Shown: positions 5,492-32,200, counted from the first letter of the stretch. The stretch: DNA of 64,000 nucleotides from Trypanosoma brucei (GCA_000002445.1 CP000071.1:2304001-2368000); one strand, 5' to 3'. Notes: generated from the letters alone by a model not told the origin. Numbers and translations: made by a program.

Positions 5492-5506
5492 GTCACTTGT
5501 GTGTAA

Positions 5507-5640
5507 TTGAATTTCAACTGCACTCTCTTCTGCTCCCTTTCGTGCCCTTACTTTATTGTTGTCTATTATCATTATTATTATTATTCTCTCATTTCTCTCC
5601 TTTAAGACTTACGAATTCCTCAAGTCAAGTCACCAGTGTT
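5507..5640 (+). promoter_or_regulatory. Polypyrimidine tract (ctctcttctgctccctttcgtgccc...tctctcatttctctcctttaag) with AG dinucleotides. This is a putative spliced-leader trans-splice acceptor region and 5' UTR of cyclase copy 2.
   Basis: A pyrimidine run is followed by AG ~35-40 nt upstream of the first in-frame ATG. This is the kinetoplastid trans-splicing architecture (established knowledge). The exact acceptor is not determinable from sequence. Confidence 0.5.
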
Positions 5641-8600
5641 ATGGCTTCCTTCATGCGTCTTGTTACTCCACTTGGCGCTGCAGTGGCTTGCAGTCATCTC
5701 CTCATGGTTGTGTTACCGCTGCTGTTACTTATTCCTGGTTTATGTGCTGATAAAGACTGTAACAGTAGCAGTGTAACGGTGAGGGTGTATAATTTGTTGT
5801 ACAGCTCTAAGATATCAAGTAAAATCTATGAACCCGTCATTGCTGGTTTCAATGCCTCGCTACATGCGCATAATGATGATTTGCCGGCAAATGTGTGCAT
5901 AGAGGTCGAACATGTTCATGCCAGAAGCGATGAGGATTACGTCTCATATTTAAAGGATAAAATTGATGGAGATGCTGCTGTACATAATAAGAGTGAACTG
6001 CCCATTGTGCTGGGACCTGTTGGTGATGTGACTACTCTCCATCTCACCAGGGAACTTGAGAAGTTTGAAATAGTGGCCTTTTCTCCCTTTACTGGATCTT
6101 CGGATGTGCGTGTGTGGAAAAAGAATCTGTACTTCCTTACGGCATCGCCTGTTGCAGAGGTGCTTGCACTAATTCGTTACGCTGTGAGTCAATTGAGGTT
6201 TCAGCGACTGGGTTTTATGTACCTGAAGGGTGTGTTTTATGGCGATAAGGAGTATAAGCTGACACTTAAGGTAATGTCGATTATGGGCCGTAAATTGTGC
6301 GGTGTTTTCGAATTAGACAGCTCTACTGATGGAAGGGCTTCTGATGATGATTTTGAGGCTGCATGGAAAAGGTTTGCTCCCACGATGCCACAAGGTGTAA
6401 TTGTGTTTGGTTCGCCAATTGAGGATACGAAGAGGTTCCTGATGAAGTTTTTAGGGAGCAATGAATTGAGAGGTGCTTATATATTAATTCCTTCCATGCT
6501 TCAATATGTTATCAAAAACAGTTGGGTGAAGGAGTTGGCCGTAAAGAATTTTGTGCCTGAGAGAGTGATACTGACGGGTCCGAGTCCACTTGCAAATGAT
6601 AATGAATACATAGCGGTACGGAAGTTTCAGCCTGTTATGGAGAAGTACCTGGAAAAAAATGGGAAACTTAATGGTCACAATTATGAAAAGGGTCACTTTT
6701 ACCAGCACAGTACTGACGGAGAATTGATGCTGCACGGATGGATCACAGGCGAGGTCTTGTGGCGTACACTGGGAAGTCGTGAATTACTGAAAAACCGTAC
6801 AACTTACATGAACTCTCTGTACAACCAGCGTCGGTATGTTATCGATGATCTTGTGATTGGTGATTTTGGTGGTGAATGTGAGGGGAAGGCTGGTCAGCGT
6901 GGAGCTGCATGCAAATGTAATCAAGGTGGAAATGTTGTTTACATGAAGAGGATGGGAACTGATCGGAATCTACATCCTGTGAAGGAGGGTGTAGTGACTC
7001 TCGCTTCATCACGCTGCTATACGAATCTCTTACAACTGTATGCCCCATTGAATGGTATAATGTTTCGACTAGAAGACAATCCATTGGCGCAGCGGATTAC
7101 AGAGGAATATCGCGATGGCGCCTCCCCCGTTGTTGGAAAGGGCCAATTGGGTCAAGGTGATCGCTTATTTTTGCATGAACTGAATTCGACATCGAGTGCG
7201 ACAAAGCACAACATGTTAGAGGAGGTTAAAGAGCGTGTTGTGACGGCCGTGTTCGGTGTTGTGGATGACGCGCTACTGTCGATGACAGATATGACATTTA
7301 TTGATCCCATTCCTCTCAGTCCCAGGTTGAAACACCCCGGAAGGAATGTGTTGCATTTGTCTCCAACAATTGAACAGCAGATTTTTGTAATGGTGGAGCG
7401 TGTTGTGGTTCCGAATTCCTGGGGGAGTGTGCATGCCATTGTTCGCAGTAGTGATGCACGTGGAATAAAATCTGTTCTTCGAAAGACTTTTTGGGCACTT
7501 GGTGGGTCGCTGGGTGCTTTCGACGAAGTTACCGACAGTGAAAGTGTGAAGAGTTTGTTACCGAATAGCGGCTTCGTTCTCGTTATTGGTCTAACTGAAG
7601 CTGATATTACTGCAATTGCTGAGCATCTTGACAATCACAGGGAAGTGCGTGTATTTGTGTTATTCTTCGATGTGGCACTGCTGTACAGTGAGTTTGTGAA
7701 GGTATTCAAAAAGCATCCGCAAGCTGCCGAGCGGTTACTATTCGCAACAAGCCTACCACACTGGGCAGACAACAATACGACATCCGAGACGGTTCAGGAG
7801 TTTCACAGGGACGTGGGGAATGAGAGTAAATGGACTCCACTGGCGCTGCTTGGGTATGCGACTGCACGTGCAATGGAAAGTGTTGTGTTGCAAATGGGGC
7901 GTGTGAACTCAGAAGAGCTTATCAACACTATATTCAGTCAGTCTGTAATTGTAGCGGATGACATGTGGTATGGACCCTTTGAGGACAGTTGTTCCAATAG
8001 CCGCTGGTCATCAGCGAAAGACTGCATTGTGAATTACGGTGCGACACATATTTCCGTGTGGTCCATGGCTCGTGTGTTGAATCCTTCCGTACCTCCTGTT
8101 AGTGGAGTAGCAGCACCATCAATACGTTACTACAAAGATGGATTGAATATGACTGAGGAAGAATTTATTGGCACAATTGTGGGTACCATTTTGTGTTTGA
8201 TAGCACTTGTGCTGATAGTAATGCTTATGCGGAAATGTATGCGTGGGGATACTCGCGATAACGAGAACGCACCAAAAGAATTGACAGACCCCGTAACGCT
8301 AATATTCACTGACATCGAGAGCAGCACTGCGCAGTGGGCAGCACACCCTGAGCTTATGCCTGATGCCGTTGCAACACATCACCGCCTAATTCGCACATTG
8401 ATTTCCAAGTATGGATGCTATGAAGTGAAGACTGTTGGAGATTCTTTTATGATTGCATGCAAGAGCCCTTTCGCTGCTACGCAATTAGCGTGTGACCTGC
8501 AGCGGTGCTTTTTAGAACATGATTGGAAGACTGATGTGTTTGATACGTCTTATCGTGAGTTTGAGCGGCAGCGTGCGGAAGATGATGGGGATTATGTTCC

Positions 8601-9444
8601 ACCCACTGGCCATCTTGACCCTGATGTTTACAGTCGGTTGTGGAATGGACTGCGAGTGCGTGTTGGAATTCACACCGGGTTGTGTGATATTCGGCATGAT
8701 GAAGTGACGAAAGGATATGACTTTTACGGTCGTACATCGAATATGGCAGCACGGACTGAGAGCATTGCTAATGGCGGGCAGGTGCTGTTGACACGTTCGA
8801 CATACCTTTCATTGAGTACTTCGGAGCGTGAGCAATTAAATGTGACTGCATTGGGTGATGTGCCATTGCGTGGTGTACCCAAACCTGTGGAGATGTACCA
8901 ATTGAATGCGGTACCCGGAAGGACATTTACTACACTGCGACTTGACCATGAGGTTGCTGATGACGAAGATACGAGTGTTTCTTGCAGTGATGGGAGTTCC
9001 ATTGGTGCAGTTCTCAGTGATGCCGCTCATCAGGCCGTTGCTTTTATTGAAGCACTACTTGGTGCATTCCCTACTGCGCAGCATAAGAAATTACTTATGC
9101 CATTTTGTAACCGATGGGGAGTTTCGTTACCTTATAATGTTTCTGATACGTGGGATGCAACCACGTGCCGTAATGTTACTCGCCTGCTTGCCGCGAGGGT
9201 TGGTCGTGTTGTGGATTTTGGGACGAAGAATACTCATGACAGTGTACAATCCTTTGATAGACGCTCGGGAACTTTCCCACCTGGATTGGTTGCCTCTGTT
9301 CCTGAGGAGGGTAGTTTAGCTTCAACTTCTACCTGTATTCAATCCAGCTGCAGTGTTGTGTACATGATGAATGGGCCAGATGATGATGATACCAGCAAAT
9401 GTTCCCCTAAGCATTGCAATATGCGTCCGTTATTGCCAGAATAA
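5641..9444 (+). CDS. GRESAG4: Receptor-type adenylate cyclase, copy 2 (1267 aa). It has a signal peptide (MASFMRLVTPLGAAVACSHLLMVVLPLLLLIPGLCA), an ectodomain, a TM helix and a class III cyclase domain.
   Basis: The long ORF 5497..9444 (track start is TTG). The first in-frame ATG is at 5641, directly followed by a hydrophobic signal sequence. The catalytic motifs are complete. Confidence 0.9.
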   Translation: MASFMRLVTPLGAAVACSHLLMVVLPLLLLIPGLCADKDCNSSSVTVRVYNLLYSSKISSKIYEPVIAGFNASLHAHNDDLPANVCIEVEHVHARSDEDYVSYLKDKIDGDAAVHNKSELPIVLGPVGDVTTLHLTRELEKFEIVAFSPFTGSSDVRVWKKNLYFLTASPVAEVLALIRYAVSQLRFQRLGFMYLKGVFYGDKEYKLTLKVMSIMGRKLCGVFELDSSTDGRASDDDFEAAWKRFAPTMPQGVIVFGSPIEDTKRFLMKFLGSNELRGAYILIPSMLQYVIKNSWVKELAVKNFVPERVILTGPSPLANDNEYIAVRKFQPVMEKYLEKNGKLNGHNYEKGHFYQHSTDGELMLHGWITGEVLWRTLGSRELLKNRTTYMNSLYNQRRYVIDDLVIGDFGGECEGKAGQRGAACKCNQGGNVVYMKRMGTDRNLHPVKEGVVTLASSRCYTNLLQLYAPLNGIMFRLEDNPLAQRITEEYRDGASPVVGKGQLGQGDRLFLHELNSTSSATKHNMLEEVKERVVTAVFGVVDDALLSMTDMTFIDPIPLSPRLKHPGRNVLHLSPTIEQQIFVMVERVVVPNSWGSVHAIVRSSDARGIKSVLRKTFWALGGSLGAFDEVTDSESVKSLLPNSGFVLVIGLTEADITAIAEHLDNHREVRVFVLFFDVALLYSEFVKVFKKHPQAAERLLFATSLPHWADNNTTSETVQEFHRDVGNESKWTPLALLGYATARAMESVVLQMGRVNSEELINTIFSQSVIVADDMWYGPFEDSCSNSRWSSAKDCIVNYGATHISVWSMARVLNPSVPPVSGVAAPSIRYYKDGLNMTEEEFIGTIVGTILCLIALVLIVMLMRKCMRGDTRDNENAPKELTDPVTLIFTDIESSTAQWAAHPELMPDAVATHHRLIRTLISKYGCYEVKTVGDSFMIACKSPFAATQLACDLQRCFLEHDWKTDVFDTSYREFERQRAEDDGDYVPPTGHLDPDVYSRLWNGLRVRVGIHTGLCDIRHDEVTKGYDFYGRTSNMAARTESIANGGQVLLTRSTYLSLSTSEREQLNVTALGDVPLRGVPKPVEMYQLNAVPGRTFTTLRLDHEVADDEDTSVSCSDGSSIGAVLSDAAHQAVAFIEALLGAFPTAQHKKLLMPFCNRWGVSLPYNVSDTWDATTCRNVTRLLAARVGRVVDFGTKNTHDSVQSFDRRSGTFPPGLVASVPEEGSLASTSTCIQSSCSVVYMMNGPDDDDTSKCSPKHCNMRPLLPE

Positions 9445-10200
9445 TTGGATAAGGTTCAATACATGATCTGTGCATGTTTCTTTTTCGATATTAGATTTTT
9501 TCGATAATATTCTTTTTAGGTTGTCTCTATTACTATGTGTGCTCAGCATCCTCCTCACATGTTGGGTGGTTTTATTATCCCTCTGATGAAAGAAATTTCT
9601 TGAAATGCTGTTGGCAATCTTTTATTTTAATACGTTTAGCGGTAAGCGCTTTTCGTTTTTCCTTTATTATGCGATACCGGAGCATGCATATCACTGCTGA
9701 TGCTCCGGCCCATAGTTTATGATATGTGTTCTTTTCCACCCCCGGTGAGTGGGTGTCAGGCAAAATGCACTGATATCCTCTTTTGGTGGGAATTTATAAG
9801 TTACCATGCTGGACAGTTGAGCCACCGTATTATTAACTTCTAATGTTGCTGTTGGTACAACATATCAGTGTCGTTCACTTTGATTTCCTTTACTATTATG
9901 TTGAAATGGTTTATTGTTTTTTTCTTTTTGTGTGCATATATCTGTATATGTGTTTCGATATACCGTCACCACTCTACCACGTTGATGGATTGGGGAATGG
10001 CTACTGATTGATTAATGCATGGTTTTTTGTCACTTTAATAACAACATTGTATTCCATGATGGCTTTCAGCAACTGACCCTTGTGTACAATTTCCTGTTTA
10101 TTTCCCTCTACTGACACAAATCTTTTTTACTAATATCTTTTCCTTCTTTTATCACTTTCCAGGACTTGACAAGCCAAATATGTGAGACTGGCTATTGCAT
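9445..10200. repeat. Intergenic 3'-flank element A, variant A2.
   Basis: It shares the conserved 3' ~450 bp (ccggtgagtgggtgtcaggcaaaatgcactgatatcc...gttgctgttggtacaacatatcag...ctttccaggacttgacaagccaaatatgtgag) with the other spacers. Its 5' ~300 bp differs from A1 and from the 14414 spacer. Confidence 0.7.
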
Positions 10201-10615: not shown

Positions 10616-13600
10616 ATGGCTTCCTTCATGCGTCTTGTTACTCCACTTGGCGCTGCAGTGGCTTGCAGTCATCTCCTCATGGTTGTGTTACCGCTGCTGT
10701 TACTTATTCCTGGTTTATGTGCTGATAAAGACTGTAACAGTAGCAGTGTAACGGTGAGGGTGTATAATTTGTTGTACGGTTCCGACGTATCAAAAGCAAT
10801 CTATGAACCCGTCATTGCTGGTTTCAATGCCTCTATCGAAGCGCACAAAGGGGATTTACCGGCAAATGTGTGCATAGAGGTGAAATATGTGCATCACGAT
10901 GGCAATGTTATTGAGGTTGGGAATATAAATAGGATTGTTGAAGAAGACAAAGGAAATATGAATGAACTGCCCATTGTGCTGGGACCTTTTGGTGATTGGG
11001 AAACTCGTAATATTTCCTCGGAACTTGAAGAGTTGAAGGTAGTTGCCTTTTCTCCCTTTACTGGATCTTCGGATGTGCGTGTGTGGAAAAAGAATCTGTA
11101 CTTCCTTACGGCATCGCCTGTTGCACAGGTGCTTGCACTAATTCGTTATGCAGTGAGTCAATTGAGGCTTCAGCGACTGGGTTTTATGTACCTGAAGGGT
11201 GTGTTTTATGGCGATAAGGAGTATAAGCTGACACTTAAGGTAATGTCGATTATGGGCCGTAAATTGTGCGGTGTTTTCGAATTAGACAGCTCTACTGATG
11301 GAAGGGCTTCTGATGATGATTTTGAGGCTGCATGGAAAAGGTTTGCTCCCACGATGCCACAAGGTGTAATTGTGTTTGGTTCGCCAATTGAGGATACGAA
11401 GAGGTTCCTGTTGAAGTTTTTAGGGAGCAATGAATTGAGAGGTGCTTATATATTAATTCCTTCTATGCTTCAATATGTTATCAAAAACAGTTGGATGAAG
11501 AAGTTGGCCGTAAAGAATTTTGTGCCTGAGAGAGTGATACTGACGGGTCTGACTCCACTTGCAAATGATAATGAATACATAGCAGTACGGAAGTTTCAGA
11601 CTGATATGGAGAAGTACCTGGAAAAAAATGGGAAACTTAATGGTCACAATTATGAAAAGGGTCACTTTTATGATCACAGTACTGACGGAGAATTGATGGT
11701 GCACGGATGGATCACAGGCGAGGTCTTGTGGCGTACACTGGGAAGTCGTGAATTACTGTGCAACCGTACAGCTTACATGAACTCTCTGTACAACCAGCGT
11801 CGGTATGTTATCGATGATCTTGTGATTGGTGATTTTGGTGGTGAATGTGAGGGGAAGGCTGGTCAGCGTGGAGCTGCATGCAAATGTAATCAAGGTGGAA
11901 ATGTTGTTTACATGAAGAGGATGGGAACTGATCGGAATCTACATCCTGTGAAGGAGGGTGTAGTGACTCTCGCTTCATCACGCTGCTATACGAATCTCTT
12001 ACAACTGTATGCCCCATTGAATGGTATAATGTTTCGACTGGAAGACAATCCATTGGCGCAGCGGATTACAGAGGAATATCGCGATGGCGCCTCCCCCGTT
12101 GTTGGAAAGGGCCAATTGGGTCAAGGTGATCGCTTCTTTTTGCATGAACTGAATTCGACATCGAGTGCGACAAAGCACAACATGTTAGAGGAGGTTAAAG
12201 AGCGTGTTGTGACGGCCGTGTTCGGTGTTGTGGATGACGCGCTACTGTCGATGACAGATATGACATTTATTGATCCCATTCCTCTCAGTCCCAGGTTGAA
12301 ACACCCCGGAAGGAATGTGTTGCATTTGTCTCCAACAATTGAGCAGCAGATTTTTGTAATGGTGGAGCGTGTTGTGGTTCCGAATTCCTGGGGGAGTGTG
12401 CATGCCATTGTTCGCAGTAGTGATGCACGTGGAATAAAATCTGTTCTTCGAAAGACTTTTTGGGCACTTGGTGGGTCGCTGGGTGCTTTCGACGAAGTTA
12501 CCGACGGTGAAAGTGTGAAGAGTTTGTTACCGCATAGCGGTTTCGTTCTCGTTATTGGTCTAACTGAAGCTTATATTACTGCAATTGCTGAGCATCTTGA
12601 CAATCACAGGGAAGTGCGTGTATTTGTGTTATTCTTCGATGTGGCACTGCTGTACAGTGAGTTTGTGAAGGTATTCAAAAAGCATCCGCAAGCTGCCGAG
12701 CGGTTACTATTCGCAACAAGCCTACCACACTGGGCAGACAACAATACGACATCCGAGACGGTTCAGGAATTTCACAGGGACGTGGGGAATGAGAGTAAAT
12801 GGACTCCACTGGCGCTGCTTGGGTATGCGACTGCACGTGCAATGGAAAGTGTTGTGTTGCAAATGGGGCGTGTGAACTCAGAAGAGCTTATCAACACTAT
12901 ATTCAGTCAGTCTGTAATTGTAGCGGATGACATGTGGTATGGACCTTTTGAGGACAGTTGTTCCAATAGCCGCTGGTCATCAGCGAAAGACTGCATTGTG
13001 AATTACGGTGCGACACATATTTCCGTGTGGTCCATGGCTCGTGTGTTGAATCCTTCCGTACCTCCTGTTAGTGGAGTAGCAACACCATCAATACGTTACT
13101 ACAAAGATGGATTGAATATGACTGAGGAAGAATTTATTGGCACAATTGTGGGTACCATTTTGTGTTTGATAGCACTTGTGCTGATAGTAATGCTTATGCG
13201 GAAATGTATGCGTGGGGATACTCGCGATAACGAGAACGCACCAAGAGAATTGACAGACCCCGTAACGCTAATATTCACTGACATCGAGAGCAGCACTGCG
13301 CAGTGGGCAGCACACCCTGAGATTATGCCTGATGCCGTTGCAACACATCACCGCCTAATTCGCACATTGATTTCCAAGTATGGATGCTATGAAGTGAAGA
13401 CTGTTGGAGATTCTTTTATGATTGCATGCAAGAGCCCTTTCGCTGCTACGCAATTAGCGTGTGACCTGCAACGATGCTTTTTAGAACATGATTGGAAGAC
13501 TGATGTGTTTGATACGTCTTATCGTGAGTTTGAGCGGCAGCGTGCGGAAGATGATGGGGATTATGTTCCACCCACTGGCCATCTTGACCCTGATGTTTAC

Positions 13601-15585: not shown

Positions 15586-18500
15586 ATGGCTTCCTTCATG
15601 CGTCTTGTTACTCCACTTGGCGCTGCAGTGGCTTGCAGTCATCTCCTCATGGTTGTGTTACCGCTGCTGTTACTTATTCCTGGTTTATGTGCTGAGGAGT
15701 GTAACAGCAGTGGTAAAGTGTCAGTGAAAGTGCACAGTTTGTTGTACAGCTCTAAGATATCAAGTAAAATCTATGAACCCGTCATTGCTGGTTTCAATGC
15801 CTCGCTACATGCGCATAATGATGATTTACCGGCAAATGTGTGCATAGAGGTCGAACATGTTCATGCCAGAAGTGATGAGGATTACGTCTCATATTTAAAG
15901 AATAAAATTGATGGAGACGCTGCTGTACAAAATAAGAGTGAACTGCCCATTGTGCTGGGACCTTTTGGTGATGAGACTACTCTCCATCTCACCAGGGAAC
16001 TTGAGAAGTTTGAAATAGTGGCCTTTTCTCCCTTTACTGGATCTTCGGATGTGCGTGTGTGGAAAAAGAATCTGTACTTCCTTACGGCATCGCCTGTTGC
16101 AGAGGTGCTTGCACTAATTCGTTATGCTGTGAGTCAATTGAGGCTTCAGCGACTGGGTTTTATGTACCTGAAGGGCGTTTCTTTCGGCGATAAGGAGTAT
16201 AAGCTGACACTTAAGGTAATGTCGATTATGGGCCGTAAATTGTGCGGTGTTTTCGAATTAGACAGCTCTACTGATGGAAGGGCTTCTGATGATGATTTTG
16301 AGGCTGCATGGAAAAGGTTTGCTCCCACGATGCCACAAGGTGTAATTGTGTTTGGTTCGCCAATTGAGGATACGAAGAGGTTCCTGATGAAGTTTTTAGG
16401 GAGCAATGAATTGAGAGGTGCTTATATATTAATTCTTTCTATGCTTCAATATGTTATCAAAAACAGTTGGATGAAGGAGTTGGCCGTAAAGAATTTTGTG
16501 CCTGAGAGAGTGATACTGACGGGTCCGAGTCCACTTGCAAATGATAATGAATACATAGCGGTACAGAAGTTTCAGCCTGATATGGAGAAGTACCTGGAAA
16601 AAAGTGGAAACTTAATGGTCACAATTATGAAAAGGGTCACTTTTACCAGCACAGTACTGACGGAGAATTGATGCTGCACGGATGGATCACAGGCGAGGTC
16701 TTGTGGCGTACACTGGGAAGTCGTGAATTACTGTGCAACCGTACAACTTACATGAACTCTCTGTACAACCAGCGTCGGTATGTTATCGATGGTCTTGTGA
16801 TTGGTGATTTTGGTGGTGAATGTGAGGGGAAGGCTGGTCAGCGTGGAGCTGCATGCAAATGTAATCAAGGTGGAAATGTTGTTTACATGAAGAGGATGGG
16901 AACTGATCGGAATCTACATCCTGTGAAGGAGGGTGTAGTGACTCTCGCTTCATCACGCTGCTATACGAATCTCTTACAACTGTATGCCCCATTGAATGGT
17001 ATAATGTTTCGACTGGAAGACAATCCATTGGCGCAGCGGATTACAGAGGAATATCGCGATGGCGCCTCCCTCGTTGTTGGAAAGGGCCAATTGGGTCAAG
17101 GTGATCGCTTCTTTTTGCATGAACTGAATTCGACATCGAGTGCGACAAAGCACAACATGTTAGAGGAGGTTAAAGAGCGTGTTGTGACGGCTGTGTTCGG
17201 TGTTGTGGATGACGCGCTACTGTCGATGACAGATATGACATTTATTGATCCCATTCCTCTCAGTCCCAGGTTGAAACACCCCGGAAGGAATGTGTTGCAT
17301 TTGTCTCCAACAATTGAACAGCAGATTTTTGTAATGGTGGAGCGTGTTGTGGTTCCGAATTCCTGGGGGAGTGTGCATGCCATTGTTCGCAGTAGTGATG
17401 CACGTGGAATAAAATCTGTTCTTCGAAAGACTTTTTGGTCACTTGGTGGGTCGCTGGGTGCTTTCGACGAAGTTACCGACGGTGAAAGTGTGAAGAGTTT
17501 GTTACCGCATAGCGGTTTCGTTCTCGTTATTGGTCTAACTGAAGCTGATATTACTGCAATTGCTGAGCATCTTGACAATCACAGGGAAGTGCGTGTATTT
17601 GTGTTATTCTTCGATGTGGCACTGCTGTACAGTGAGTTTGTGAAGGTATTCAAAAAGCATCCGCAAGCTGCCGAGCGGTTACTATTCGCAACAAGCCTAC
17701 CACACTGGGCAGACAACAATACGACATCCGAGACGGTTCAGGAATTTCACAGGGACGTGGGGATTCAGAGTAAATGGACTCCACTGGCGCTGCTTGGGTA
17801 TGCGACTGCACGTGCAATGGAAAGTGTTGTGTTGCAAATGGGGCGTGTGAACTCAGAAGAGCTTATCAACACTATATTCAGTCAGTCTGTAATTGTAGCG
17901 GATGACATGTGGTATGGACCCTTTGAGGACAGTTGTTCCAATAGCCGCTGGTCATCAGCGAAAGACTGCATTGTGAATTACGGTGCGACACATATTTCCG
18001 TGTGGTCCATGGCTCGTGTGTTGAATCCTTCCGTACCTCCTGTTAGTGGAGTAGCAACACCATCAATACGTTACTACAAAGATGGATTGAATATGACTGA
18101 GGAAGAATTTATTGGCACAATTGTGGGTACCATTTTTTGTTTGATAGCACTTGTGCTGATAGTAATGCTTATGCGGAAATGTATGCGTGGGGATACTCGC
18201 GATAACGAGAACGCACCAAAAGAATTGACAGACCCCGTAACGCTAATATTCACTGACATCGAGAGCAGCACTGCGCAGTGGGCAGCACACCCTGAGCTTA
18301 TGCCTGATGCCGTTGCAACACATCACCGCCTAATTCGCACATTGATTTCCAAGTATGGATGCTATGAAGTGAAGACTGTTGGAGATTCTTTTATGATTGC
18401 ATGCAAGAGCCCTTTCGCTGCTACGCAATTAGCGTGTGACCTGCAACGATGCTTTTTAGAACATGATTGGAAGACTGATGTGTTTGATACGTCTTATCGT

Positions 18501-19139
18501 GAGTTTGAGCGGCAGCGTGCGGAAGATGATGGGGATTATGTTCCACCCACTGGCCATCTTGACCCTGATGTTTACAGTCGGTTGTGGAATGGACTGCGAG
18601 TGCGTGTTGGAATCCACGCCGGGTTGTGTGATATTCGGCATGATGAAGTGACGAAAGGATATGACTTTTACGGTCGTACATCGAATATGGCAGCACGGAC
18701 TGAGAGCATTGCTAATGGCGGGCAGGTGCTGTTGACACGTTCGACATACCTTTCATTGAGTACTTCGGAGCGTGAGCAATTAAATGTGACTGCATTGGGT
18801 GATGTGCCATTGCGTGGTGTACCCAAACCTGTGGAGATGTACCAATTGAATGCGGTACCCGGAAGGACATTTACTACACTGCGACTTGACCATGAGGTTG
18901 CTGATGACGAAGATACGAGTGTTTCTTGCAGTGATGGGAGTTCCATTGGTGCAGTTCTCAGTGATGCCGCTCATCAGGTTGTTGCTTTTATTGAAGCACT
19001 ACTTGGTGCATTCCCCACTGCGCAGCGTAAGAAATTACTTATGCCATTTTGTAACCGATGGGGAGTTTCGGCACCTTATAATGTTTCTGATACGTGGGAT
19101 GCAACCACGTGCCATAATGTTACAGTCACTTGTGTGTAA
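15586..19139 (+). pseudogene. GRESAG4: Receptor-type adenylate cyclase copy 4, disrupted. A -1 frameshift lies in a homopolymer at ~16610-16616 (ggaaaaaagtggaaac, where the other copies read ggaaaaaaatgggaaac). The C-terminus is replaced by the F-type ending ...TTCHNVTVTCV*. The gene then runs directly into the next copy's splice region with no 3' flank.
   Basis: The ORF track splits the copy into 15442..16671 and 16668..19139 in different frames. The unit length here is 3688 bp, against ~4970 elsewhere. Confidence 0.8.
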
Positions 19140-19273: not shown

Positions 19274-22200
19274 ATGGCTTCCTTCATGCGTCTTGTTACT
19301 CCACTTGGCGCTGCAGTGGCTTGCAGTCATCTCCTCATGGTTGTGTTACCGCTGCTGTTACTTATTCCTGGTTTATGTGCTGATAAAGACTGTAACAGTA
19401 GCAGTGTAACGGTGAGGGTGTATAATTTGTTGTACGGCTCCGACGTATCAAAAGCAATCTATGAACCCGTCATTGCTGGTTTCAATGCCTCGCTACATGC
19501 GCATAATGATGATTTACCGGCAAATGTGTGCATAGAGGTCGAACATGTTCATGCCAGAAGTGATGAGGATTACGTCTCATATTTAAAGAATAAAATTGAT
19601 GGAGATGCTGCTGTACAAAATAAGAGTGAACTGCCCATTGTGCTGGGACCTTTTGGTGATTGGGAAACTCGTAATATTTCCTCGGAACTTGAAGAGTTGA
19701 AGGTAGTTGCCTTTTCTCCCTTTACTGGATCTTCGGATGTGCGTGTGTGGAAAAAGAATCTGTACTTCCTTACGGCATCACCTATTGCACAGGTGCTTGC
19801 ACTAATTCGTTATGCTGTGAGTCAATTGAGGCTTCAGCGACTGGGTTTTATGTACCTGAAGGGTGTGTTTTATGGCGATAAGGAGTATAAGCTGACACTT
19901 AAGGTAATGTCGATTATGGGCCGTAAATTGTGCGGTGTTTTCGAATTAGACAGCTCTACTGATGGAAGGGCTTCTGATGATGATTTTGAGGCTGCATGGA
20001 AGAGGTTTGCTCCCACGATGCCACAAGGTGTAATTGTGTTTGGTTCGCCAATTGAGGATACGAAGAGGTTCCTGTTGAAGTTTTTAGGGAGCAATGAATT
20101 GAGAGGTGCTTATATATTAATTCCTTCCATGCTTCAATATGTTATCAAAAACAGTTGGATGAAGAAGTTGGCCGTAAAGAATTTTGTGCCTGAGAGAGTG
20201 ATACTGACGGGTCTGACTCCACTTGCAAATGATAATGAATACATAGCAGTACGGAAGTTTCAGACTGATATGGAGAAGTACCTGGAAACAAATGGGAAAC
20301 TTAATGGTCACAATTATGAAAAGGGTCACTTTTACCAGCACAGTACTGACGGAGAATTGATGGTGCACGGATGGATCACAGGCGAGGTCTTGTGGCGTAC
20401 ACTGGGAAGTCGTGAATTACTGTGCAACCGTACAGCTTACATGAACTCTCTGTACAACCAGCGTCGGTATGTTATCGATGATCTTGTGATTGGTGATTTT
20501 GGTGGTGAATGTGAGGGGAAGGCTGGTCAGCGTGGAGCTGCATGCAAATGTAATCAAGGTGGAAATGTTGTTTACATGAAGAGGATGGGAACTGATCGGA
20601 ATCTACATCCTGTGAAGGAGGGTGTAGTGACTCTCGCTTCATCACGCTGCTATACGAATCTCTTACAACTGTATGCCCCATTGAATGGTATAATGTTTCG
20701 ACTAGAAGACAATCCATTGGCTCAGCGGATTACAGAGGAATATCGCGATGGCGCCTCCCTCGTTGTTGGAAAGGGCCAATTGGGTCAAGGTGATCGCTTC
20801 TTTTTGCATGAACTGAATTCGACATCGAGTGCGACAAAGCACAACATGTTAGAGGAGGTTAAAGAGCGTGTTGTGACGGCTGTGTTCGGTGTTGTGGATG
20901 ACGCGCTACTGTCGATGACAGATATGACATTTATTGATCCCATTCCTCTCAGTCCCAGGTTGAAACACCCCGGAAGGAATGTGTTGCATTTGTCTCCAAC
21001 AATTGAACAGCAGATTTTTGTAATGGTGGAGCGTGTTGTGGTTCCGAATTCCTGGGGGAGTGTGCATGCCATTGTTCGCAGTAGTGATGCACGTGGAATA
21101 AAATCTGTTCTTCGAAAGACTTTTTGGGCACTTGGTGGGTCGCTGGGTGCTTTCGACGAAGTTACCGACGGTGAAAGTGTGAAGAGTTTGTTACCGCATA
21201 GCGGTTTCGTTCTCGTTATTGGTCTAACTGAAGCTGATATTACTGCAATTGCTGAGCATCTTGACAATCACAGGGAAGTGCGTGTATTTGTGTTATTCTT
21301 CGATGTGGCACTGCTGTACAGTGAGTTTGTGAAGGTATTCAAAAAGCATCCGCAAGCTGCCGAGCGGTTACTATTCGCAACAAGCCTACCACACTGGGCA
21401 GACAACAATACGACATCCGAGACGGTTCAGGAATTTCACAGGGACGTGGGGAATGAGAGTAAATGGACTCCACTGGCGCTACTTGGGTACGCGACTGCAC
21501 GTGCAATGGAAAGTGTTGTGTTGCAAATGGGGCGTGTGAACTCAGAAGAGCTTATCAACACTATATTCAGTCAGTCTGTAATTGTAGCGGATGACATGTG
21601 GTATGGACCCTTTGAGGACAGTTGTTCCAATAGCCGCTGGTCATCAGCGAAAGACTGCATTGTGAATTACGGTGCGACACATATTTCCGTGTGGTCCATG
21701 GCTCGTGTGTTGAATCCTTCCGTACCTCCTGTTAGTGGAGTAGCAACACCATCAATACGTTACTACAAAGATGGATTGAATATGACTGAGGAAGAATTTA
21801 TTGGCACAATTGTGGGTACCATTTTGTGTTTGATAGCACTTGTGCTGATAGTAATGCTTATGCGGAAATGTATGCGTGGGGATACTCGCGATAACGAGAA
21901 CGCACCAAAAGAATTGACAGACCCCGTAACGCTAATATTCACTGACATCGAGAGCAGCACTGCGCAGTGGGCAGCACACCCTGAGCTTATGCCTGATGCC
22001 GTTGCAACACATCACCGCCTAATTCGCACATTGATTTCCAAGTATGGATGCTATGAAGTGAAGACTGTTGGAGATTCTTTTATGATTGCATGCAAGAGCC
22101 CTTTCGCTGCTACGCAATTAGCATGTGACCTGCAACGATGCTTTTTAGAACATGATTGGAAGACTGATGTGTTTGATACGTCTTATCGTGAGTTTGAGCG

Positions 22201-24240: not shown

Positions 24241-27200
24241 ATGGCTTCCTTCATGCGTCTTGTTACTCCACTTGGCGCTGCAGTGGCTTGCAGTCATCTC
24301 CTCATGGTTGTGTTACCGCTGCTGTTACTTATTCCTGGTTTATGTGCTGATAAAGACTGTAACAGTAGCAGTGTAACGGTGAGGGTGTATAATTTGTTGT
24401 ACAGCTTTAAGATATCAAGTAAAATCTATGAACCCGTCATTGCTGGTTTCAATGCCTCGCTACATGCGCATAATGATGATTTGCCGGCAAATGTGTGCAT
24501 AGAGGTCGAACATGTTCATGCCAGAAGCGATGAGGATTACGTCTCATATTTAAAGAATAAAATTGATGGAGATGCTGCTGTACAAAATAAGAGTGAACTG
24601 CCCATTGTGCTGGGACCTTTTGGTGATGTGACTACTCTCCATCTCACCAGGGAACTTGAGAAGTTTGAAATAGTGGCCTTTTCTCCCTTTACTGGATCTT
24701 CGGATGTGCGTGTGTGGAAAAAGAACCTGTACTATCTTACGGCATCGCCTGTTGCACAGGTGCTTGCACTAATTCGTTATGCAGTGAGTCAATTGAGGTT
24801 TCAGCGACTGGGTTTTATGTACCTGAAGGGTGTGTTTTATGGCGATAAGGAGTATAAGCTGACACTTAAGGTAATGTCGATTATGGGCCGTAAATTGTGC
24901 GGTGTTTTCGAATTAGACAGCTCTACTGATGGAAGGGCTTCTGATGATGATTTTGAGGCTGCATGGAAAAGGTTTGCTCCCACGATGCCACAAGGTGTAA
25001 TTGTGTTTGGTTCGCCAATTGAGGATACGAAGAGGTTCCTGATGAAGTTTTTAGGGAGCAATGAATTGAGAGGTGCTTATATATTAATTCCTTCCATGCT
25101 TCAATATGTTATCAAAAACAGTTGGGTGAAGGAGTTGGCCGTAAAGAATTTTGTGCCTGAGAGAGTGATACTGACGGGTCCGAGTCCACTTGCAAATGAT
25201 AATGAATACATAGCAGTACGGAAGTTTCAGACTGATATGGAGAAGTACCTGGAAACAAATGGGAAACTTAATGGTCACAATTATGAAAAGGGTCACTTTT
25301 ACCAGCACAGTACTGACGGAGAGTTGATGGTGCACGGATGGATCACAGGCGAGGTCTTGTGGCGTACACTGGGAAGTCGTGAATTACTGTGCAACCGTAC
25401 AGCTTACATGAACTCTCTGTACAACCAGCGTCGGTATGTTATCGATGATCTTGTGATTGGTGATTTTGGTGGTGAATGTGAGGGGAAGGCTGGTCAGCGT
25501 GGAGCTGCATGCAAATGTAATCAAGGTGGAAATGTTGTTTACATGAAGAGGATGGGAACTGATCGGAATCTACATCCTGTGAAGGAGGGTGTAGTGACTC
25601 TCGCTTCATCACGCTGCTATACGAATCTCTTACAACTGTATGCCCCATTGAATGGTATAATGTTTCGACTGGAAGACAATCCATTGGCGCAGCGGATTAC
25701 AGAGGAATATCGCGATGGCGCCTCCCCCGTTGTTGGAAAGGGCCAATTGGGTCAAGGTGATCGCTTCTTTTTGCATGAACTGAATTCGACATCGAGTGCG
25801 ACAAAGCACAACATGTTAGAGGAGGTTAAAGAGCGTGTTGTGACGGCCGTGTTCGGTGTTGTGGATGACGCGCTACTGTCGATGACAGATATGACATTTA
25901 TTGATCCCATTCCTCTCAGTCCCAGGTTGAAACACCCCGGAAGGAATGTGTTGCATTTGTCTCCAACAATTGAGCAGCAGATTTTTGTAATGGTGGAGCG
26001 TGTTGTGGTTCCGAATTCCTGGGGGAGTGTGCATGCCATTGTTCGCAGTAGTGATGCACGTGGAATAAAATCTGTTCTTCGAAAGACTTTTTGGGCACTT
26101 GGTGGGTCGCTGGGTGCTTTCGACGAAGTTACCGACGGTGAAAGTGTGAAGAGTTTGTTACCGCATAGCGGTTTCGTTCTCGTTATTGGTCTAACTGAAG
26201 CTGATATTACTGCAATTGCTGAGCATCTTGACAATCACAGGGAAGTGCGTGTATTTGTGTTATTCTTCGATGTGGCACTGCTGTACAGTGAGTTTGTGAA
26301 GGTATTCAAAAAGCATCCGCAAGCTGCCGAGCGGTTACTATTCGCAACAAGCCTACCACACTGGGCAGACAACAATACGACATCCGAGACGGTTCAGGAA
26401 TTTCACAGGGACGTGGGGAATGAGAGTAAATGGACTCCACTGGCGCTACTTGGGTACGCGACTGCACGTGCAATGGAAAGTGTTGTGTTGCAAATGGGGC
26501 GTGTGAACTCAGAAGAGCTTATCAACACTATATTCAGTCAGTCTGTAATTGTAGCGGATGACATGTGGTATGGACCCTTTGAGGACAGTTGTTCCAATAG
26601 CCGCTGGTCATCAGCGAAAGACTGCATTGTGAATTACGGTGCGACACATATTTCCGTGTGGTCCATGGCTCGTGTGTTGAATCCTTCCGTACCTCCTGTT
26701 AGTGGAGTAGCAACACCATCAATACGTTACTACAAAGATGGATTGAATATGACTGAGGAAGAATTTATTGGCACAATTGTGGGTACCATTTTGTGTTTGA
26801 TAGCACTTGTGCTGATAGTAATGCTTATGCGGAAATGTATGCGTGGGGATACTCGCGATAACGAGAACGCACCAAAAGAATTGACAGACCCCGTAACGCT
26901 AATATTCACTGACATCGAGAGCAGCACTGCGCAGTGGGCAGCACACCCTGAGCTTATGCCTGATGCCGTTGCAACACATCACCGCCTAATTCGCACATTG
27001 ATTTCCAAGTATGGATGCTATGAAGTGAAGACTGTTGGAGATTCTTTTATGATTGCATGCAAGAGCCCTTTCGCTGCTGCGCAATTAGCGTGTGACCTGC
27101 AGCGGTGCTTTTTAGAACATGATTGGAAGACTGATGTGTTTGATACGTCTTATCGTGAGTTTGAGCGGCAGCGTGCGGAAGATGATGGGGATTATGTTCC

Positions 27201-29201: not shown

Positions 29202-32200
29202 ATGGCTTCCTTCATGCGTCTTGTTACTCCACTTGGCGCTGCAGTGGCTTGCAGTCATCTCCTCATGGTTGTGTTACCGCTGCTGTTACTTATTCCTGGT
29301 TTATGTGCTGATAAAGACTGTAACAGCAGTGGTAAAGTGTCAGTGAAAGTGCACAGTTTGTTGTACAGCTCTAAGATATCAAGTAAAATCTATGAACCCG
29401 TCATTGCTGGTTTCAATGCCTCGCTACATGCGCATAATGATGATTTACCGGCAAATGTGTGCACAAAGGTTGAGCTCGTGCACGTTGTGAGTGGTGGGAA
29501 TCATATGAATACTATTGAGACGATGATTGGGGAGGGTGAAGAAAATAGTAATGAACTGCCCATTGTGCTGGGACCTTTTGGTGATGAGACTACTCTCCAT
29601 CTCACCTCGAAACTTGAGAAGTTAAAGGTAGTGGCCTTTTCTCCCTTTACTGGATCTTCGGATGTGCGTGTGTGGAAAAAGAATCTGTACTTCCTTACGG
29701 CATCGCCTGTTGCAGAGGTGCTTGCACTAATTCGTTATGCTGTGAGTCAATTGAGGCTTCAGCGACTGGGTTTTATGTACCTGAAGGGTGTGTTTTATGG
29801 CGATAAGGAGTACGAGCTGACACTTAAGGTAATGTCGATTATGGGCCGTAAATTGTGCGGTGTTTTCGAATTAGACAGCTCTACTGATAGAAGGGCTTCT
29901 GATGATGATTTTGAGGCTGCATGGAAAAGGTTTGCTCCCACGATGCCACAAGGTGTAATTGTGTTTGGTTCGCCAATTGAGGATACGAAGAGGTTCCTGA
30001 ATAGGTTATTGGGGAGCAATGAATTGAGAGGTGCTTATATATTAATTCCTTCCATGCTTCAATATGTTATCAAAAACAGTTGGCTGGATGATCTGCAATT
30101 ATTTAATTTGAATTTCTCGAAAGTGATAGTTGCGGGTCTGACTCCACTTGCAAATGATAATGAATACATAGCGGTACAGAAGTTTCAGACTGATATGGGG
30201 AAGTACCTGGGAAATAATGGAAAACTTAATGGTCACAATTATGAAAAGGGTCACTTCTACCAGCACAGTACTGACGGAGAATTGATGCTGCACGGATGGA
30301 TTGTGGGCGAGGTCTTGTGGCGTACACTGGGAAGTCGTGAATTACTGTGCAACCGTACAACTTACATGAACTCTCTGTACAACCAGCGTCGGTATGTTAT
30401 CGATGATCTTGTGATTGGTGATTTTGGTGGTGAATGTGAGGGGAAGGCTGGTCAGCGTGGAGCTGCATGCAAATGTAATCAAGGTGGAAATGTTGTTTAC
30501 ATGAAGAGGATGGGAACTGATCGGAATCTACATCCTGTGAAGGAGGGTGTAGTGACTCTCGCTTCATCACGCTGCTATACGAATCTCTTACAACTGTATG
30601 CCCCATTGAATGGTATAATGTTTCGACTAGAAGACAATCCATTGGCGCAGCGGATTACAGAGGAATATCGCGATGGCGCCTCCCTCGTTGTTGGAAAGGG
30701 CCAATTGGGTCAAGGTGATCGCTTCTTTTTGCATGAACTGAATTCGACATCGAGTGCGACAAAGCACAACATGTTAGAGGAGGTTAAAGAGCGTGTTGTG
30801 ACGGCTGTGTTCGGTGTTGTGGATGATGCGCTACTGTCGATGACAGATATGACATTTATTGATCCCATTCCTCTCAGTCCCAGGTTGAAACACCCCGGAA
30901 GGAATGCGTTGCATTTGTCTCCAACAATTGAGCAGCAGATTTTTGTTATAGTTAAAAACTTTGTTGTTAAAAATTCTTCAAGAAGAGTGCGTGCCATTGT
31001 TCGCGGTGGTGATGCACGTGGAATAAAATCTGTGCTACGAAGGACACTTTGGGTTTTTGGAAAGTTTTTGAGGGCAGTTGACACTATTAATGATGGTGAA
31101 AGTGTGAGGGGGATGTTGCATCGCAGTCGTGATTGTTTCGTTTTCGGTCTAACTGAAGCTGATATTACTGCAATTGCTGAGCATCTTGACAATCACAGGA
31201 AAGTGCGTGTATTTGTGTCGTTCTTCGATGTGGCACTGCTGTACAGTGAGTTTGTGAAGGTATTCAAAAAGCATCCGCAAGCTGCCGAGCGGTTACTATT
31301 CGCAACAAGCCTACCACACTGGGCAGACAACAATACGACATCCGAGACGGTTCAGGAATTTCACAGGGACGTGGGGATTCAGAGTAAATGGACTCCACTG
31401 GCGCTGCTTGGGTATGCGACTGCACGTGCAATGGAAAGTGTTGTGTCGCGAATGGGGCGTGTGAACTCAGAAGAGCTTATCAACGCCATATTCAGTCAGT
31501 CTGTAATTGTAGCGGATGACATGTGGTATGGACCCTTTGAGGACAGTTGCGCTAGCGGGTCCTCAGTGAAGGATTGCGCTGTGAATTACGGTGCGACACA
31601 TATTTCCGTGTGGTCCATGGCTCGTGTGTTGAATCCTTCCGTACCTCCTGTTAGCCAACCCGAAAGTCCATCGATACATTATTATAGTAATGGATTGAAT
31701 ATGACTGAGGAAGAATTTATTGGCACAATTGTGGGTACCATTTTGTGTTTGATAGCACTTGTGCTGATAGTAACAGTTATACGGAGGTTAATGCGTCTTA
31801 ACGCGCGGGATAACGAGAACGCACCAAAAGAATTGACAGACCCCGTAACGCTAATATTCACTGACATCGAGAGCAGCACTGCGCAGTGGGCAGCACACCC
31901 TGAGCTTATGCCTGATGCCGTTGCAACACATCACCGCCTAATTCGCACATTGATTTCCAAGTATGGATGCTATGAAGTGAAGACTGTTGGAGATTCTTTT
32001 ATGATTGCATGCAAGAGCCCTTTCGCTGCTACGCAATTAGCATGTGACCTGCAACGATGCTTTTTAGAACATGATTGGAAGACTGATGTGTTTGATACGT
32101 CTTATCGTGAGTTTGAGCGGCAGCGTGCGGAAGATGATGGGGATTATGTTCCACCCACTGGCCATCTTGACCCTGATGTTTACAGTCGGTTGTGGAATGG

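Follow-up and report, generated by a model that had tools for sequence, protein, structure and literature searches.

A block-wise variable patch in the N-terminal flytrap domain of the GRESAG4 receptor adenylate cyclase array on chromosome 8 of Trypanosoma brucei

The array and its genes

The stretch of DNA analysed here, called the window, comprises 64,000 nucleotides of chromosome 8 of Trypanosoma brucei brucei TREU927 (CP000071.1, 2304001-2368000); positions are counted from its first nucleotide and all of its large open reading frames (ORFs) lie on the plus strand. Seven of them, each of about 1265 residues, are arranged head to tail with a repeat unit of about 4.97 kb and belong to the GRESAG4 receptor adenylate cyclases. 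The subject of this work is a patch near the N-terminus of these proteins, in which the copies differ block by block. Copy 2 (5641..9444, plus strand, 1267 amino acids), which carries the haplotype called alpha below, serves as the coordinate reference. The ATG start codons of copies 2 to 7 were located at 5641, 10616, 15586, 19274, 24241 and 29202, respectively; copy 1 is truncated by the start of the window and copy 4 is a pseudogene.

The translation of copy 2 is identical with the TREU927 protein AAZ13549 (P0003), and those of copies 5 and 6 are identical with AAZ13551 and AAZ13552 of the same strain. On its 3' side the array is followed in the window by a gene of 1758 residues and by an H+-pyrophosphatase gene; the latter is Tb927.8.7980, which adjoins a cyclase array (PMC2212663). 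In Jackson's reports an array named "80a" is given as Tb927.8.7860, with 8 copies between 2,302,044 and 2,340,635 (PMC1855330, PMC2854126). Since the translations are identical and the pyrophosphatase is the neighbour, the array of the window is the GRESAG4 array "80a" on chromosome 8, Tb927.8.7860 onward.

On every copy the Pfam domains PF25495 and PF25493 (both adenylate-cyclase-type periplasmic-binding-protein-like) and PF00211 (cyclase catalytic) were recognised, the matches having E values of 5e-56 (residues 172-313), 5.6e-141 (residues 466-830) and 9e-40, respectively. The class III catalytic domain matches the solved T. brucei GRESAG4.1/4.3 structures (PDB 1FX2, E = 8.5e-120; 1FX4, E = 1.1e-117). 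An N-terminal signal peptide, MASFMRLV...LLLLIPGLCA, and a single transmembrane helix, IGTIVGTILCLIALVLIVMLM, between the ectodomain and the catalytic domain were seen by inspection of the translation only.

The variable patch and its modules

The comparisons were made on alignments of the coding sequences (CDS), on codon alignments and on a four-copy alignment; the whole-unit alignment was misaligned past the stop codon in the downstream flank of copy 7. Copies 0 and 1 of TREU927 were compared at the protein level only. In copy 2 the variable N-terminal patch occupies 5746..6081 (plus strand, residues 36-147), the variable stretch proper being 5751-6075 (residues 37-145). Columns were counted in the four intact internal copies. 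The patch has 89 variable columns out of 336 (26.5%), against 62 out of 2889 (2.1%) in the remaining CDS body (odds ratio 16, p = 3.6e-52), and the signal peptide has none. The variation of lobe II, the second lobe of the domain described below, is about tenfold lower than that of the patch. An earlier note on this DNA had described nearly identical bodies with sharply different haplotypes just after the signal peptide; the counts agree with this, and all the peptides quoted there were found in frame at their positions. In the codon alignment the differences across the first 150 codons are block-wise, and the blocks are shared between the copies in different combinations.

The variation within the patch falls into five modules, A to E, between which there are invariant islands of 16-36 bp. 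Their coordinates are given for copy 2, on the plus strand, and the secondary structure is that of the AlphaFold2 model described below. Module A (5751..5792) encodes the mature N-terminus and strand beta1. Its site patterns are aabaaa and then aabaab, and it has a common type, ADKDCNSSSVTVRVYN, and a gamma type, AEECNSSGKVSVKVHS, copy 4 differing at every site. Module B (5803..5822) corresponds to the loop from beta1 to alpha1, at the predicted edge of the cleft, and separates copies 3 and 5 from the rest. It has three alleles: SSKISSKI, GSDVSKAI (copies 3 and 5) and, in the proteins of copies 0 and 1, SSDISKTT. The following island (5823..5858, 36 bp) encodes the core of helix alpha1, YEPVIAGFNAS, and does not contain a single variable site in six copies; GFNAS is nearly invariant in the whole family, the entropy being near 0 at G69, A72 and S73.

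Module C (5859..5883) covers the C-terminus of alpha1 and the next tip loop. Here copy 3 alone differs, with IEAHKGDL in place of LHAHNDDL, and a third allele is present in T. b. gambiense. An island at the start of strand beta2 (5884..5899), without difference in any copy, separates it from module D (5900..5993), which takes in the last part of beta2, helix alpha2 and the loop that leads on to beta3. Module D occurs in the window as three haplotypes with 2-codon indels: copies 2, 4, 5 and 6 share alpha, copy 3 has beta and copy 7 has delta. A fourth half-module, D2, was found in T. b. gambiense. It also has the lowest predicted local distance difference test (pLDDT) value of the patch (67). 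The next island (5994..6018), again identical in every copy, encodes strand beta3 with an invariant Gly-Pro, ELPIVLGP. In module E (6019..6075), the beta3-to-alpha3 loop with helix alpha3, copies 3 and 5 stand against copies 2, 6 and 4, copy 7 being a hybrid; the alpha allele is V/FGDV/ETTLHLTRELEKFEIV and the beta allele, carried by copies 3 and 5, is FGDWETRNISSELEELKVV. N-glycosylation sequons come and go with the modules: alpha D brings NKS at 116 and beta E brings NIS at 134; copy 5 has both and copy 7 neither, and a NAS sequon at 71 is lost in one T. b. gambiense copy.

Two smaller switch patches lie further along the CDS (6529..6665, plus strand), with the alleles MKELAV...TGPSP versus MKKLAV...TGLTP at about 6529-6591 and RKFQPVMEKYLEKNGK versus RKFQTDMEKYLETNGK at about 6610-6665. 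They had been pointed out before and proved to be both real and recombinant, the alleles being combined differently among the copies: copy 3 pairs TD with EKNGK.

A second variable zone, absent from the earlier note, comprises the C-terminal tail and the proximal 3' untranslated region (UTR) at 8941..9740 (plus strand), and the same zone is present in each repeat unit. The tail has 10% variable columns; across 9538-9737 the counts per 100 bp were 44 and 28. The zone reaches about the first 300 nt of the 3' UTR; outside it, the spacer and the 5' UTR hardly vary. Through this zone the copies could differ in their mRNA regulation.

Module combinations of the copies

The patch of copy 3 (10721..11050; this and the following ones on the plus strand) is of the beta type at B, C, D and E, that of copy 4 (15691..16026) has a gamma start and alpha modules after it, and that of copy 6 (24346..24681) is alpha throughout. 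Copy 5 (19379..19714) is a mosaic of beta (B), alpha (C, D) and beta (E). Copy 7 (29307..29639) has a hybrid start, alpha B and C, a private delta D and a hybrid E, its start joining ADKDC of the common type to GKVSVKVHS of the gamma type. The assignment of alpha to copies 2 and 6 and of beta to copy 3, as made in the earlier note, thus agrees with the codon alignment, and the gamma-then-alpha order of copy 4 was borne out, with the correction that this copy is a pseudogene. Copy 7 had been read as gamma followed by delta. Its delta core is indeed private, but the start and module E are hybrid and alpha-type B and C precede the delta block.

The pseudogene copy 4 (15586-19139) has a deletion of 1 nt near 16606, AAAAATGGG having become AAAAGT-GG. 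In addition, about 250 nt of the end of its CDS and the entire intergenic spacer are deleted, and its CDS is fused to the 5' UTR of copy 5. The junction (19114-19123) coincides with a 10-nt microhomology, ATAATGTTAC, which is present in the CDS and upstream of every copy.

Copy 7 (29202-32954), the last of the array, carries further private divergent blocks. There are 22 private sites at the equivalent of 6534-6574, the ratio of nonsynonymous to synonymous divergence (dN/dS) is 1.0-1.7 across residues 281-345, and dS is about 0.25 at residues 561-860 and about 0.44 in the C-terminal tail. This divergence fits a copy at the edge of the array that is homogenised less often. The positional counterpart of copy 7 in T. 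b. equiperdum is without the delta module.

Recombination and age of the modules

The pairwise homoplasy index (PHI) of the CDS was 0.205, against a permuted mean of 0.464, and none of the 2000 permutations was as low (p<0.0005). In the patch alone the observed value was 0.188 against 0.335, again with none of 2000 permutations as low. The runs of site patterns change over at the islands. When copy 5 was compared with copies 3 and 6 in a triplet test, 120 informative sites gave a maximum chi-square of 53.5 (p<=0.001), which upholds the beta/alpha/beta mosaic that had been claimed for this copy. Its order is beta, then 49 successive alpha-type informative sites with one exception, then beta to about 6584, and the alpha tract is not longer than about 205 bp.

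The silent divergence of the patch is high. The dS is 0.35 between alpha and beta, 0.37 between alpha and delta and 0.59 between beta and delta, while in all other segments of the internal copies it is 0.005-0.057; the modules are thus at 10-30 times the background. In codons that encode the same residue, silent differences amount to 9 per 16 sites in the modules and to 1 per 19.4 in the islands. Since the islands are homogenised at silent sites, they are to be counted with the homogenised background, from which the modules stand apart as diverged blocks. The patch dS, set against the low values elsewhere, argues that the modules are old alternative alleles which escape homogenisation and not fresh mutations. 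The pairwise Nei-Gojobori dN/dS of the patch was 0.42-0.82 and never exceeded 1; positive selection is therefore not claimed.

Short tracts with two breakpoints favour gene conversion over unequal crossing-over. Segmental gene conversion among the copies of the array is well supported by these comparisons. The picture of short conversion tracts on a homogenised background, drawn in the earlier note, finds its support in the incompatible combinations, in the silent divergence and in the reassortment of the modules in two other subspecies.

The locus in other subspecies and the search for donors

The same locus was taken from T. b. equiperdum (L001) and from T. b. gambiense DAL972 (L002) for comparison at the nucleotide level. 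In T. b. equiperdum the single-copy gene flanking the array has 99.64% identity to that of the window. The modules recur in both genomes with differences of 0-3 nt, in other combinations. The middle T. b. gambiense copy is alpha except for a beta module B (0 nt from copy 5), and in the last one gamma (2 nt from copy 4) and alpha are followed by an alpha D1 between new forms of C and D2, and then by beta E; the beta E of the T. b. gambiense protein P0063 is 2 nt from copy 3. In eqB, the last copy of T. b. equiperdum, gamma and alpha are followed by a beta C (2 nt from copy 3) and then again by alpha. The gamma module A differs by 2 nt in the last cyclase copies of both genomes. Since the beta C of eqB is bounded by alpha on both sides, the tract there is not longer than about 77 bp.

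Repeats of 5 kb with about 97-98% identity are hard to assemble, and in the T. b. gambiense assembly the array has collapsed to 3-4 copies. The mosaics could therefore be thought of as mis-assembled repeats, or else as the product of point hypermutation in situ without recombination. We regard the chance of either as almost negligible. Identical modules appear in three independent assemblies made with different technologies, so the modules are real; moreover, blocks with many silent differences pass intact between copies, and PHI rejects the absence of recombination.

An outside donor of the beta, delta or gamma modules was not found among about 58 other family sequences, which were cluster representatives at 90% identity; the best patch identity was 42.5%. 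A protein search with the 197-residue beta patch alone gave two matches, and the family was retrieved with a full-length query. Since no other retrieved family member carries the modules, the alleles are native to the lineage of the array itself. A recent ectopic import of blocks from other GRESAG4 loci, e.g. from the chromosome 4 array, would be in line with the likeness of the dispersed gene P0068 to copy 2, which points to ectopic conversion within the family. But a patch identity of at most 42.5% is below that between alpha and beta, and we hold such an import to be highly improbable; it was rejected as no module donor was present among the family sequences retrieved. In the paralogous array on chromosome 4 the copies also switch at the alpha2-to-beta3 module.

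The dispersed chromosome 8 cyclase gene mentioned above (P0068/P0004, i.e. AAZ13522 and its T. b. gambiense orthologue) was compared with copy 2 (5641-9444). The identity is 86-100% at residues of about 500-750 and 88-98% at about 900-1100, but only 22-52% in the first 150 residues and 34-62% at 750-900. Judged from the sequences, this pattern looks like ectopic gene conversion with the array in which the N-terminal flytrap domain was spared. Within the T. b. gambiense protein P0062 (CBH13880) a segment of about 60 residues is directly repeated, HRDVGNESKWTPLALLGYATARAMESVVLQMGRVNSEELINTIFSQSVIVADDMWYGPFE being present twice; this may be a true duplication in frame, or else an artefact of assembly in the collapsed gambiense array. 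Among the retrieved proteins, P0018 and P0031 are full-length receptor adenylate cyclases of the trypanosome type under a Schistosoma mansoni label, on contigs of 17-20 kb, and P0031 is closely similar to T. brucei P0023, P0029 and P0032. They are probably trypanosome contamination of the Schistosoma mansoni assembly.

Place of the patch in the fold

An AlphaFold2 model of residues 36-470, built from 51 family sequences, reached a pLDDT of 85.9 and a predicted template modelling (pTM) score of 0.89. It has the complete type I periplasmic binding protein (PBP) or Venus-flytrap fold, with two Rossmann-like lobes joined by a hinge. In a Foldseek search the best matches were leucine-isoleucine-valine (LIV)-binding proteins (4kv7, E = 5e-15, TM-scores 0.65/0.75), followed by the flytrap domains of taste receptors, metabotropic glutamate receptors (mGluR) and the atrial natriuretic peptide (ANP) receptor; 812 PDB chains had E<=0.001. 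The patch, which the earlier note had proposed to map on a structure, forms the first beta-alpha-beta-alpha-beta-alpha-beta segment of lobe I of the N-terminal Venus-flytrap domain in this model, and its exposure would follow indirectly, as discussed below.

Module B and the starts of modules D and E correspond to the loops after beta1, beta2 and beta3. In the type I PBP topology the loops after these strands point toward the cleft between the lobes, and the loops preceding beta2, beta3 and beta4 form the far tip. On this topology the patch would touch the edge of the cleft but would lie mostly on the tip and on the helix surface (alpha2, alpha3). The loop after beta4, AFSPFTGSS, is invariant within the N-terminal 200 or so residues of the array proteins and well conserved in the family, more so than the other loops of the pocket type. 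When the flytrap domain was searched as a profile against PDB sequences, a marginal match to 4kv7 (E = 0.2) was obtained, in whose alignment GPVGD (GPxGD) and SPFTGS fall at the ligand-binding-loop positions of LIV-binding proteins. Since this match is marginal, the mapping of the ligand loops is based on topology.

The residues that vary in the array are the least conserved ones family-wide (mean entropy 2.69 versus 1.77 bits, p = 1e-6). In helices alpha2 and alpha3 the only conserved residues are L104 and I108, and T132, L135 and L139, respectively, with the spacing of a buried face. The islands encode the core of the fold: GFNAS of alpha1, the start of beta2, and beta3 with the Gly-Pro.

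What the variation may do

In the earlier note the patch was taken as a diversification of the ligand-binding domain. The part of this claim that stands is the location in a Venus-flytrap domain, with the starts of B, D and E on cleft-side loops. The remainder is weakened: most of the variation is in helices and tip loops, the beta4 loop is invariant, dN/dS is 0.42-0.82, the positions are of low constraint and the sequons toggle. The data are explained no less well by antigenic or glycan variation, by a dimer interface or by low constraint.

If the modules retuned the ligand specificity of the cleft, the array would be a set of sensors for different ligands. The domain is a complete type I PBP fold, and B, the start of D and the start of E lie on the loops that supply the ligand contacts in LivJ-type proteins. 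In LivJ itself the contact residues are Tyr18 and Leu77-Ser79. The weak 4kv7 profile alignment puts GPVGD at the equivalent loop, and the alleles alter residue size and charge, with V/F at 127 and V/W/E at 130. However, the SPFTGSS loop is constant in the array, lobe II is about tenfold less variable, the majority of the variable residues are on alpha2, alpha3 and the tip loops, and dN/dS is below 1; in addition, no ligand is known for any trypanosome cyclase (PMC7719234). On balance we consider a retuned cleft rather unlikely.

Another possibility is that the patch is the portion of an otherwise constant flagellar surface protein which antibodies reach most easily, and that shuffled epitope and glycan variants dilute or evade host antibody. 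The variable residues are located on helices and loops which are predicted to be exposed and which contain much D, E, K, N and G; indels occur there and the pLDDT is low. Sequons are gained and lost with the modules (NKS 116, NIS 134, NAS 71), and diversification of the ectodomain as a means of humoral evasion was proposed by Salmon 2012, as cited in PMC7719234. Against this, the copies are presumably co-transcribed in one polycistronic unit, so that there would be no switching mechanism; dN/dS is below 1, and there are just 3-4 alleles per module. We regard antigenic or glycan heterogeneity as a possible but somewhat doubtful role.

The conservation data bear also on the pairing of isoforms. 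By analogy with helices B and C of the flytraps of class C G protein-coupled receptors and of the ANP receptor, to which Foldseek found matches, alpha2 and alpha3 might form a dimer interface of lobe I, and the modules might decide which isoforms pair. Dimerisation is required for the activity of trypanosome cyclases, and modules D and E span exactly alpha2 and alpha3. But the nearest structural matches are monomeric bacterial binding proteins, and interfaces are usually conserved, whereas the alpha2/alpha3 residues are the least conserved ones. A control of pairing would therefore seem very unlikely.

Finally, the variation may have no adaptive role at all. The patch would then be the least constrained region, its divergence refractory to homogenisation, and its blocks would be shuffled neutrally by occasional tracts. 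The positions that vary in the array are the most variable ones of the family, a dN/dS of 0.4-0.8 is in line with relaxed constraint, the non-coding proximal 3' UTR is as variable as the patch, and the pseudogene copy 4 has a normal module set. Two observations hint, without being decisive, that diversity is maintained: the modules are kept to 0-3 nt across subspecies while the body is homogenised per genome, and an independent switching at the same module is seen in the chromosome 4 array. We put the absence of an adaptive role forward tentatively, as a possible state of affairs. Our best guess is that the array offers surface (antigenic or glycan) heterogeneity or plain tolerated variation, in preference to a retuned binding pocket.

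A model for the array

The explanation that we consider, as a whole, highly probable is that of a chromosome 8 array with homogenised bodies and old shuffled modules which yields a panel of surface isoforms. Concerted evolution, i.e. conversion between the tandem copies, would keep most of the unit of about 5 kb nearly identical, and the first 110 or so mature residues hold the old diverged modules, with 3-4 alleles for each of the five segments. The islands and the homogenised flanks would offer the homology for short-tract gene conversion, some tracts being at most about 80-205 bp long. Conversion would move single modules between copies, so that each copy and each subspecies has its own module combination. 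The mosaic, the age of the modules, their reassortment and their place in the fold are shown by the comparisons above. We infer the conversion mechanism together with a mismatch barrier: the modules may evade homogenisation by a divergence of 25-40%, which would block heteroduplex formation, and by occupying surface positions of low constraint. The outcome is a panel of cyclase isoforms, encoded next to each other on one strand, with a common body and catalytic domain; on lobe I of the N-terminal flytrap domain they differ in loops predicted to be exposed, in two predicted surface helices and in the position of the sequons.

Several points weigh against this explanation. Eight copies are too few for the direction of conversion or the donors to be determined. 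Unequal crossing-over could yield chimeras with a single breakpoint, although not short tracts with two breakpoints. The mismatch barrier draws on what is generally known of recombination in T. brucei. With a pairwise dN/dS of 0.4-0.8, diversifying selection at single sites is neither proved nor excluded. The outside-donor search was limited to the 90%-identity cluster representatives, and the surface exposure of the variable residues is something that we infer from secondary structure, from the periodicity of conservation, from pLDDT and from the sequons.

A bolder form of the model would make the N-terminal lobe of GRESAG4 proteins a cassette system in which the islands act as joints and conversion recombines alleles maintained by balancing selection, in several arrays, as the switching at the same module in the chromosome 4 array would suggest. 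We think this unlikely. If true, it would be a second mechanism of diversity by segmental conversion, outside the variant surface glycoproteins (VSGs), for an 'invariant' flagellar receptor, and new combinations would alter the surface, the glycan or the edge of the cleft.

Receptor adenylate cyclases are the largest candidate family of environmental sensors in African trypanosomes and have been implicated in immune modulation and in social motility. With about 110 differing residues, the copies of the array are compact natural chimeras which carry swappable modules on lobe I of the distal flytrap domain. They could be used for testing ligand binding, antibody recognition and the control of pairing.

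Other features of the window

The cyclase ORFs extend 48 codons upstream of their ATG (5497-5640 and the equivalents), from a TTG (MCVIEFQLH...). The extension is a read-through of the conserved pyrimidine-rich 5' UTR and splice-acceptor region and is non-coding. TREU927 copy 0 (P0059, 1298 amino acids) and T. b. gambiense P0062 are annotated from an upstream ATG there, and both annotations are probably over-extended.

At the other end of the window a giant ORF of at least 4060 codons (51821-64000, plus strand) continues past the window end; it contains a thioredoxin-like PF13905 domain, with DUF3638/DUF3645 near the C-terminal part. An antisense ORF of 313 codons (37560-38501, minus strand) lies within the 1758-residue gene in a GC-rich stretch and is most likely spurious.

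Comparison with known systems

The proteins of the array have the architecture of the GRESAG4/ESAG4 family, with a signal peptide, two PBP-like ectodomain modules, one transmembrane helix and a class III cyclase, and the family's known pattern of a variable ectodomain and a conserved catalytic domain holds in the array as well. There is no difference at the level of the family; the finding concerns variation inside one array. As to the fold, residues 36-470 match LivJ/LivK, the ANP receptor, mGluR and T1R with TM-scores of up to 0.79 (normalised to the target). The identity to these is only 8-16%, and the cyclases have two tandem domains before the cyclase.

In mosaic VSGs short conversion tracts combine diverged blocks in the exposed N-terminal part. 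The formation of such mosaics by segmental gene conversion is mentioned in PMC7015903. The likeness to the array consists in the short tracts by which diverged blocks of the N-terminus of a surface protein are recombined. Unlike the VSG system, the cyclase array is without a silent archive, an expression site and sequential switching, it has 3-4 alleles per module, and its events are seen only between subspecies, on evolutionary timescales. The copies follow one another head to tail on a single strand, their upstream regions are identical, and no outside donor was found among the family sequences retrieved, which would argue against an archive with switching of the VSG type.

The ESAG6/7 transferrin receptor has short hypervariable stretches in its exposed ectodomain which differ between the copies of the expression sites, and it is debated whether this variation is driven by ligand range or by antibody evasion. 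It resembles the cyclases of the array in being a trypanosome surface receptor with copy-specific, hypervariable exposed stretches. It differs from them in its VSG-like fold and in its telomeric expression sites, the copies of which are expressed one at a time.

The nearest precedent is the array itself. Concerted evolution and gene conversion in tandem arrays of T. brucei, cyclase arrays included, were described by Jackson (2007), who singled out array 80a for concerted evolution between subspecies (PMC1855330). For the same array a PHI of p<0.001, 10 breakpoints by likelihood ratio test (LRT) and at least 11 by GARD are given in Table 2 of Jackson et al. (2010), and the subspecies-specific copies are described there as mostly recombinants of other duplicates (PMC2854126). 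In the supplement of 2007 only two events are listed for array 80a, one at CDS 1665-1980 and one in the 3' UTR, and none in the N-terminal patch (PMC1855330). The genes, the concerted evolution and the recombinant mosaics are thus the same as those found here, and since PHI and breakpoints were reported for this array, the phenomenon, mosaicism at array 80a, is already published. The accessible parts of both papers give statistics at the level of the array, and the five modules, the silent-site age, the islands, the structural mapping and the switching of sequons were not found described in them. What is added here is a finer anatomy of the same array, i.e. its modules, their age, their joints, the sizes of the tracts, the structural position and the switching of sequons.

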